From sequence record MF327005: a DNA stretch of 64,000 nucleotides; one strand, 5' to 3'. This DNA comes from Shigella phage Sf19. The translations under genes were made by a program, and so were the position numbers. This document shows positions 14,050 to 14,181 of the stretch, piece by piece (within the stretch, counting starts at the first letter, position 1; every line of letters begins with the position of its first letter). The notes below the pieces were generated by a model. The model saw only the letters and a program-made list of their open reading frames with translations. It ran no database searches and had not been told where the DNA came from.

Positions 14050-14181
14050 CTTTGCAGTGACTTATGGAGCTAACCAGTCGTCCCATGAGTGCCGAAGAGT
14101 CTCTTGAGCATGATTCTAGATTAGCTTATAAGAGATGACTCTACAAACCCTTTAGCAAGGTTTGCGTAGGTTACTGCAAAG
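14050..14181 (+). ncRNA. structured element E: 12 bp terminal stem enclosing ~110 nt with nested hairpins
   Basis: ctttgcagtgac ... gttactgcaaag (one G-U); inner gagtctctt/aagagatgactc stem. Confidence 0.45.

Follow-up and report, generated by a model that had tools for sequence, protein, structure and literature searches.

A structurally conserved, pseudoknotted RNA upstream of tRNA-Lys(UUU) in the tRNA arrays of FelixO1-like phages

Shigella phage Sf19 (sequence record MF327005) encodes a plus-strand tRNA array within the 64,000-nucleotide (nt) stretch of DNA analysed here (the window), and this array includes a 132-nt element at 14050-14181 (+) that lies shortly before tRNA-Lys(UUU). Comparative sequence evidence establishes that this element is a real folded RNA, conserved in structure over sequence and structurally selected. 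Across ten lineages in total (the sequence type of the window, T1; the FelixO1 type, T2; and eight distant loci) the sequence is largely replaced and the fold is kept, and retention of structure under such turnover is a signature of selection on structure. Members of the family are approximately 115-150 nt long and share a three-way junction architecture. We favour, with about even confidence, the reading that the element is a stable, processed, pseudoknotted non-coding RNA of an undescribed family that would act in trans. A preliminary description, drawn from the letters of the window, had offered either an RNase III substrate or a stable small structured RNA, and the latter fits a fold that covaries across at least ten lineages.

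The terminal stem of 12 base pairs (bp) with one G-U pair that had been described is present as CTTTGCAGTGAC (14050-14061) paired with GTTACTGCAAAG (14170-14181), which form 11 Watson-Crick pairs and one G-U pair. Five further pairs (UUAUG/CGUAG, helix P1b) extend this stem to 17 bp around approximately 98 nt, a combination of long end-joining stem and large interior as in the Y RNA layout. Folding indicated that the 132-nt element is stable on the plus strand, with a minimum free energy of -45.8 kcal/mol against a mean of -29.6 for dinucleotide shuffles (n = 200; z = -4.68), none of the 200 shuffles folding equally well, while the minus strand folds more weakly (-38.9 kcal/mol). Local inverted repeats of 12 nt are unexceptional in the window (n = 22), where that of the element (21-nt arms, 86% complementarity) ranks third in size; the element stands above chance because it is conserved with compensatory changes in related phages. 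The parts of the fold are as follows, with positions in the element (1 = 14050) in brackets.

14050-14066, plus strand: 5' strand of P1, made up of the 12 bp stem (14050-14061; positions 1-12 pair with 121-132) and P1b (14062-14066; positions 13-17 pair with 116-120); paired in all cells of an alignment of 24 sequences
14069-14073, plus strand: J1/2 pentamer GCUAA, 5' strand of a 5 bp pseudoknot (positions 20-24 pair with 103-107, the UUAGC within the 9-nt loop of P4)
14074-14086, plus strand: linker, variable in both sequence and length over its first six bases, with CGUCCCA invariant within the type of the window
14087-14090, plus strand: P2 5' strand GAGU (positions 38-41 pair with 89-92), within the motif GRGUAKGC, present in all lineages
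14099-14136, plus strand: central arm, comprising P3a (14099-14105:14130-14136; positions 50-56:81-87), P3b (14106-14109:14124-14127; positions 57-60:75-78) and P3c (14111-14115:14119-14123; positions 62-66:70-74) with the apical loop CUA
14138-14141, plus strand: P2 3' strand ACUC, the partner of GAGU
14144-14164, plus strand: P4 hairpin, with stem 14144-14149:14159-14164 (positions 95-100:110-115) and 9-nt loop CUUUAGCAA (14150-14158)
14165-14181, plus strand: P1 3' strand, made up of P1b (14165-14169) and P1 (14170-14181)
14182-14191, plus strand: AU-rich leader of 10 nt that separates the element from tRNA-Lys
14192-14267, plus strand: tRNA-Lys(UUU), the invariable downstream neighbour, 10 nt from the element

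The P4 hairpin joins the 3' strand of P1 at P1b without a linker, and positions 3-7 of its loop form the 3' strand of the pseudoknot. Two small hairpins at the 5' side, 14078-14088 and AUGG:CCAU, were rejected, as natural variants disrupt them.

The window belongs to a Mooglevirus (Ounavirinae, FelixO1-like myoviruses). Matches to region 13800-14300 occur in 249 phage records, led by the Mooglevirus Shigella phages Sf15, Sf13 and Sf17 with 98%, and an element is found in the same place in FelixO1, EC6 and BPSELC-1. Types T1 and T2 together have a mean column identity of 77% (MAFFT) and fold alike. MAFFT placed gaps wrongly in P1 and P4 of these types, so model-guided alignments were used instead. 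In such an alignment of the 24 sequences, 96.5% of pair cells hold standard pairs, a share that drops to 26-44% once the 3' partners are displaced by 1-3 columns. Changes on both sides occur at 18 pairs, and part of this count is owed to a 1-nt shift in the register of T2 within P1; within T1 alone they occur at four pairs, three in P3a and one in P4. Between types, P1 changes are compensatory (C:G to U:A, C:G to G:C and G:C to U:G) and FelixO1 has one extra inserted pair in this helix; conservation of the stem in related genomes is thus observed. A covariance model trained solely on 12 T1 variants recovers T2 with 37-43 bits (E ~1e-6 to 1e-8) and further matches loci L184, L185 and L186. The model scores 156 bits on the plus strand and ~19 bits on the minus strand, and this asymmetry, together with G-U-rich pairing that only makes sense for a plus-strand RNA, points to a plus-strand RNA as the functional form.

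More distant members were sought around relatives of a neighbouring 471-aa protein that are 52-62% identical and encoded on syntenic ~90 kb contigs, including Yersinia phage vB_YenM_P778. Covariance models found one element in each of eight fetched distant loci, and the six lineages outside the training set (L186 and L267-L271) scored 23.7-42.4 bits. By the same approach, 72 loci whose Ro-like proteins are 39-47% identical gave no element, and Klebsiella phage FBKp34, Aeromonas phage LAh_9 and L051-L058 gave none either, which indicates that the family is restricted to an Ounavirinae-like clade. A loose pattern scan of viral contigs was discarded, as it returned approximately 100 chance loci and none that fitted the model. 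The Salmonella phage BPSELC-1 (L003 1511-1644) is a Felixounavirus whose flanks are FelixO1-like (L001), yet its element is of the Moogle type (T1), which suggests exchange among co-infecting relatives.

Each part of the fold has its own pattern of variation across these lineages. P1 sequences are unrelated across lineages, though the terminal duplexes of 11 representatives all have energies of -18 to -30 kcal/mol; the helix is 17-18 bp long in the Felix and Moogle types and elsewhere covers 13-20 positions with mismatches or bulges. The pseudoknot takes the forms GCUAA:UUAGC, GCUUA:UAAGC, ACUA:UAGU and GUUCA:UGAAC, with compensation at three of its five positions, and in the ACUA:UAGU form the loop AGCAA is replaced by AGUAA. 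P4 stems also covary (CAAACC, CAGACC, CAGAC, CAGUC, AAAGUC, CCGUUC, CAACC and AGAGAC). By inspection, P2 is GAGU:ACUC in three types and GGGU paired with ACCC or ACCU in three others, and FelixO1 and L184 have a shifted pairing, GUA-U-GCGR:YCGC-UAC. The central arm differs from lineage to lineage. All Felix and Moogle types end it in the tip AUUCUAGAUU (14113-14122), four other lineages have a 7-nt UAACGUU loop on covarying stems, and two have an ACGA tetraloop. Part of this arm had been noticed as a nested hairpin. Its inner helix, GUCUCUU (14099-14105) with AAGAGAU (14130-14136), is backed by covariation (C:G/U:A/U:G at one pair and U:A/C:G at another; three P3a pairs are altered on both sides within the type of the window), while its outer helix GAGUC:GACUC is not kept, other variants having GAAUU there.

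The element was earlier said to lack a T-loop and coding capacity, and both absences were confirmed, the former by Aragorn and Rfam. No plus-strand open reading frame (ORF) of at least 25 aa lies inside the element, only two minus-strand ORFs occur at it and these overlap it partly, and its variants range from 129 to 134 nt with indels that are not multiples of three, which leaves no conserved ORF. The element is likewise negative as a cloverleaf tRNA, being detected neither by Aragorn nor by RF00005. An Rfam scan returned no family for the element at the gathering threshold, and a permissive cmscan (Rfam 15, 296 nt, E <= 10) returned none for it either, ribozyme and riboswitch models included. 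Mimicry of the host was rejected after blastn found no similarity in 5,426 E. coli genomes. Tips are self-complementary in several lineages (UCUAGA, AUACUAGUAU, AACGUU and GCGCGC), and a kissing-loop homodimer was considered and rejected: when the core is shuffled, 6-99% of shuffles contain palindromes as long as those observed (mostly 6 nt), with 61-75% for the seven lineages whose longest palindrome is 6 nt, and two lineages have the ACGA tetraloop instead.

The tRNA array that surrounds the element extends over 13036-18487 on the plus strand and contains 25 tRNAs detected by Aragorn. The site given in the preliminary description, between an element named D (end ~14044) and tRNA-Lys (14192), is correct for the window; in the other lineages only the adjacency to tRNA-Lys is kept. 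The 3' end of the element lies 6-27 nt upstream of tRNA-Lys(UUU) in 10/10 lineages, and on its 5' side most of the eight distant loci have tRNA-Ala in place of element D. The order of the array (Pro-Glu-Met-Asn-Asp-...-Lys-...-Met-Ile-Arg) is common to the lineages. In the record of Sf17, the interval from tRNA-Asp to tRNA-Lys has no annotation. The features upstream and downstream that bear on the element are listed here.

11455-12870, plus strand: gene for a predicted Ro60-like protein (DUF2828 and DUF7788 by Pfam), 1.2 kb upstream of the element
12979-13008, plus strand: sigma-70-like promoter (11/12 matches, extended -10), from a consensus scan only
13207-13277, 13370-13437, 13828-13904 and 13917-14044: elements A-D, each with a short end-joining stem, UUACAGCAA after the 5' strand and a 3' side that ends in CUGG
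13917-14044, plus strand: element D, which is Y-RNA-like and contains a tRNA-like module, directly upstream of the element in the Felix and Moogle types only
14517-14545: next promoter-like site (11/12 matches), also from a consensus scan

No terminator-like site was found on the plus strand between the two promoter-like sites, and from this layout the element should be co-transcribed with tRNA-Pro through tRNA-Ile.

The AlphaFold (AF2) model of the product of ORF 11455-12870 (pLDDT 78.4) has Ro60/TROVE proteins as all of its top 11 PDB matches (E 2.7e-7 to 6.7e-5), so this protein is predicted to adopt a Ro60-like fold. Homologues occur in 709 phage records covering many host genera, often beside tRNA arrays, and those of mycobacteriophages carry the annotation 'Ro-like RNA binding protein'. 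Element D follows the V-T-AS-D order described for YrlA (PMC4201824): a V hairpin, a T arm (GAAGG UUCGAUU CCUUC), an acceptor-like hairpin (ACACG/CGUGU, which covaries with ACUCG/CGAGU in FelixO1) and a D arm. Part of element D scores 28.8 bits against the tRNA model, for which the cutoff is 29. The architecture of A-D recurs with covarying stems beside Ro-like (DUF2828) genes in FBKp34 (L060 6520-6810) and in a distant AT-rich phage contig (L057 3667-3897). It is also the architecture that defines the Dictyostelium Class I RNAs (RF01414), to which there are weak matches of 25.3, 21.3 and 17.6 bits; Class I RNAs are described as unique to dictyostelids (PMC7919456). In FBKp34, a 114-nt gene annotated as 'tRNA-Asp' (L060 7003-7116) carries the Y-like signature UUUACAGCA in an insertion that separates its D region from the anticodon arm. 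No paper was found that joins Ro-like proteins, phages and Y RNA in tRNA arrays.

Several other spacers of the array are also structured. A hairpin of 66-76 nt lies directly 5' of tRNA-Leu(UAG) (15902-15969 in the window; 7912-7987 in L184) and has the terminal helix of the element (CUUUNUAG...CUACAAAG), followed by a AUUUAAUG leader; the covariance model scores it 20-24 bits in several phages, and judged from its sequence it looks like a short paralogue of the element. Long-stem spacers with inverted-repeat arms of 16 nt at 14712-14775, 16639-16798 and 14273-14336 precede tRNA-Arg(UCU), tRNA-Arg(ACG) and tRNA-Met, respectively, and spacer 14268-14346 folds with z = -5.0. Structured spacers appear to be a general trait of this array.

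On the reading that we favour, the element would be transcribed within the polycistronic operon of tRNAs and Y-like RNAs, and the long helix P1 locks its 5' and 3' ends together. P4, which directly abuts the 3' strand of P1, is probably stacked on it; pairing of the P4 loop with five nt just after the P1 5' strand forms a pseudoknot that would clamp the junction, and the P2 helix bears the lineage-variable central arm with its conserved tip. RNase P would cut 10 nt beyond the element, where tRNA-Lys begins, and the other end could be freed by endonucleolytic cutting or by 3' trimming of the upstream RNA. Exonucleases would then halt at P1 and leave a discrete, stable small RNA, whose folded core may present a specific binding surface in trans. 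The order of its parts is like that of a tRNA lacking a D stem, and this leads to the guess of a ligand for a tRNA- or RNA-handling factor. By this analogy, our best guess is that the factor would be tied to the module of Ro60-like protein and Y-like RNAs. More tentatively, and with a low probability in our estimation, this tRNA-shaped non-tRNA RNA, the Ro60-like protein, the Y-like RNAs and tRNA-Lys(UUU) might constitute one RNA-surveillance or counter-defence module, in which the element could be, for example, a decoy or a cofactor for a factor that handles tRNA-Lys. tRNA-Lys is a classic target of host anticodon nucleases.

A number of observations weigh against a trans-acting RNA of this kind. 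The likeness to tRNA is topological only, with neither a T-loop/D-loop signature nor a match to the tRNA model, and P1 has no cross-lineage motif that could act as a Ro-type binding site. Lineages differ in the central arm, and the FelixO1 type also in P2, and the pseudoknot is out of register or weak in L186 and L268. The linkage to tRNA-Lys may merely mirror the conserved order of the tRNAs, and, since several more spacers of the array form long hairpins too, some of the signal may be common to spacers in general. That a discrete stable RNA exists is something that we infer.

The first alternative is that the element is purely a processing stem for RNase III or another endonuclease, in which P1 separates the upstream RNA from pre-tRNA-Lys and the interior is functionless. 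Such stems are known to flank 16S and 23S rRNA and to form the early RNase III sites of T7. The element resembles these rRNA operon and T7 stems in that a long helix forms from flanking sequences of a polycistronic transcript, and in the Felix and Moogle types P1 and P1b make a continuous helix of 17-18 bp. The shorter hairpin before tRNA-Leu(UAG), which has the same helix ends, and the long-stem spacers before the tRNA-Arg genes would also suit such a role. However, the helix is shorter than those of known RNase III stems and often imperfect, being only ~13 bp in several lineages or broken by mismatches or bulges, a borderline case for a classic RNase III site. It also encloses a conserved fold whose P4, pseudoknot and P2 covary across lineages with unrelated P1, and processing alone would require no pseudoknot and no 9-nt loop of invariant frame. 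An RNase III substrate cannot explain this conserved core, and we consider a pure processing stem improbable.

An equally improbable alternative is a divergent Y RNA, whose terminal helix would be bound directly by the Ro60-like protein, as is presumed for elements A-D. The element is comparable to the Y RNAs YrlA and YrlB (RF02553; Chen et al. 2014, PMC4201824) in lying among tRNA-like RNAs near a same-strand Ro60-type gene, here 1.2 kb upstream, and both have an end-joining long stem and a large structured interior. The Y RNAs are ~80-150 nt long, and the 115-150 nt of the family, its long end stem and its large internal multiloop match the published description (PMC4201824). In L271, moreover, the linker after P1 (GCUUUACAGCC) is close to UUUACAGCAA of the Y-like elements. 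The element nevertheless lacks T and D arms and has no match to RF02553 (E <= 10). Neither of two Ro-binding motifs is present in 14050-14181: not the YrlA motif GNCGAAN0-1G, and not a stem with adjacent UWACAGCAA, the hallmark of Y-like elements in three phage groups. Its P1 sequence is unconserved between lineages, its interior is a pseudoknotted three-way junction, and its family is far narrower than the distribution of the Ro-like gene, with no member found in the 72 distant Ro-like loci or in FBKp34 and L057, which do have Y-like elements.

Somewhat less probable still is a cis-acting leader for tRNA-Lys(UUU), whose fold would promote or time maturation of the tRNA or protect its precursor. 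The element keeps its place 6-27 nt before tRNA-Lys(UUU) in all ten lineages despite the switch of upstream neighbour from element D to tRNA-Ala, in line with such a role, but array order is itself conserved and the adjacency may be inherited synteny. It is also established that RNase P requires no structured leader, and there is no lineage-specific complementarity between the element and the tRNA. Mimicry of the anticodon arm was examined here as well: P4 of FelixO1 (CAGAC-CUUAAGCAA-GUCUG) resembles the anticodon arm of tRNA-Lys, and the idea was rejected because P4 stems do not track tRNA-Lys anticodon stems across the 10 lineages.

A self-cleaving ribozyme or ligand aptamer of a new class, with the P1-closed pseudoknotted three-way junction as its core, is very unlikely. 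A closing helix, a three-way junction, a loop-linker pseudoknot and a few invariant junction nucleotides are features found in small ribozymes and riboswitch aptamers, and small ribozymes occur beside phage tRNAs. Against this, no Rfam ribozyme or riboswitch model matches even at E <= 10, no downstream expression platform or regulated ORF is present, and known ribozyme cores were rejected by eye, as no hammerhead core (CUGANGA...GAAA) is seen and the strand order is unlike the nested double pseudoknot of the hepatitis delta virus ribozyme. It is just as far-fetched that the element is functionless, a decayed remnant of a tRNA or other element or merely a stable spacer, as the other odd tRNA-like pieces and hairpin spacers of the array might suggest, since helices, pseudoknot, loop frame and position have been kept through compensatory changes under near-complete sequence turnover.

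The closest parallels in known systems are of context and shape. Phage T4 species 1 and species 2 RNAs (rnaC and rnaD) are stable, small non-tRNA RNAs that are encoded in a tRNA operon and freed by the tRNA-processing machinery. The element is alike in context; T4 is unrelated to the Ounavirinae, and homology is not claimed. D-armless mitochondrial tRNAs, mascRNA and viral tRNA-like structures share with the element a closing helix, a loop-paired linker, a long arm and a hairpin beside the 3' strand of the closing helix, and the element, as tRNAs do, sits in a tRNA array. It differs from them in having a closing helix of 13-20 bp rather than 7, a 9-nt loop without the T-loop signature, no CCA and no adherence to the rule of an anticodon-like 7-nt loop, and in being negative with Aragorn and the tRNA covariance model. 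ROOL and GOLLD, large orphan structured RNAs of phages and prophages, often occur beside phage tRNA genes. Both have entries in Rfam and are 4-6 times larger than the element, which has no Rfam match and for which self-association is unsupported.

The element thus joins a known kind, the orphan structured RNAs embedded in phage tRNA operons, as a family that was previously undescribed: no description of it was found in Rfam 15 or in the literature searched, and non-tRNA RNAs go unmentioned in a 2025 study of the near-identical array of Sf14 (PMC12482277). The usual annotation of a phage tRNA array consists of tRNAs and junk spacers, and at least one 'spacer' here is a structurally selected pseudoknotted RNA, whose fold persists in phage genera with hosts in Escherichia, Shigella, Salmonella, Citrobacter and Yersinia. 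An operon with a predicted Ro60-like protein and Y-RNA-like RNAs offers a tractable entry to Ro/Y-type ribonucleoproteins and to the roles of orphan RNAs in infection, as the host phages are easily grown and RNA-targeted knockdown has already been applied to the related phage SUSP1 (PMC11879866). If a surveillance or counter-defence module were to prove true, the element would represent a new functional class of phage RNA, and interest would also increase were the element shown to be connected with the Ro-like module or with protection of tRNA-Lys; were it merely a processing by-product, interest would be modest.

Some further genes of the array came to light in this analysis. Within it, a 134-aa ORF (15216-15620) has no Pfam match at E <= 0.01 and encodes cysteine pairs and a C-terminal CSNCHRKVH that recalls HNH homing endonucleases. 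Three tRNA-like genes were missed by Aragorn: 13598-13683 is a tRNA-Tyr (so annotated in Sf17; Rfam 22.8 bits), 15131-15198 is a tRNA (32.6 bits), and 14873-14987, of approximately 115 nt, has a good T arm, an acceptor stem and CCA together with a very large internal insertion.
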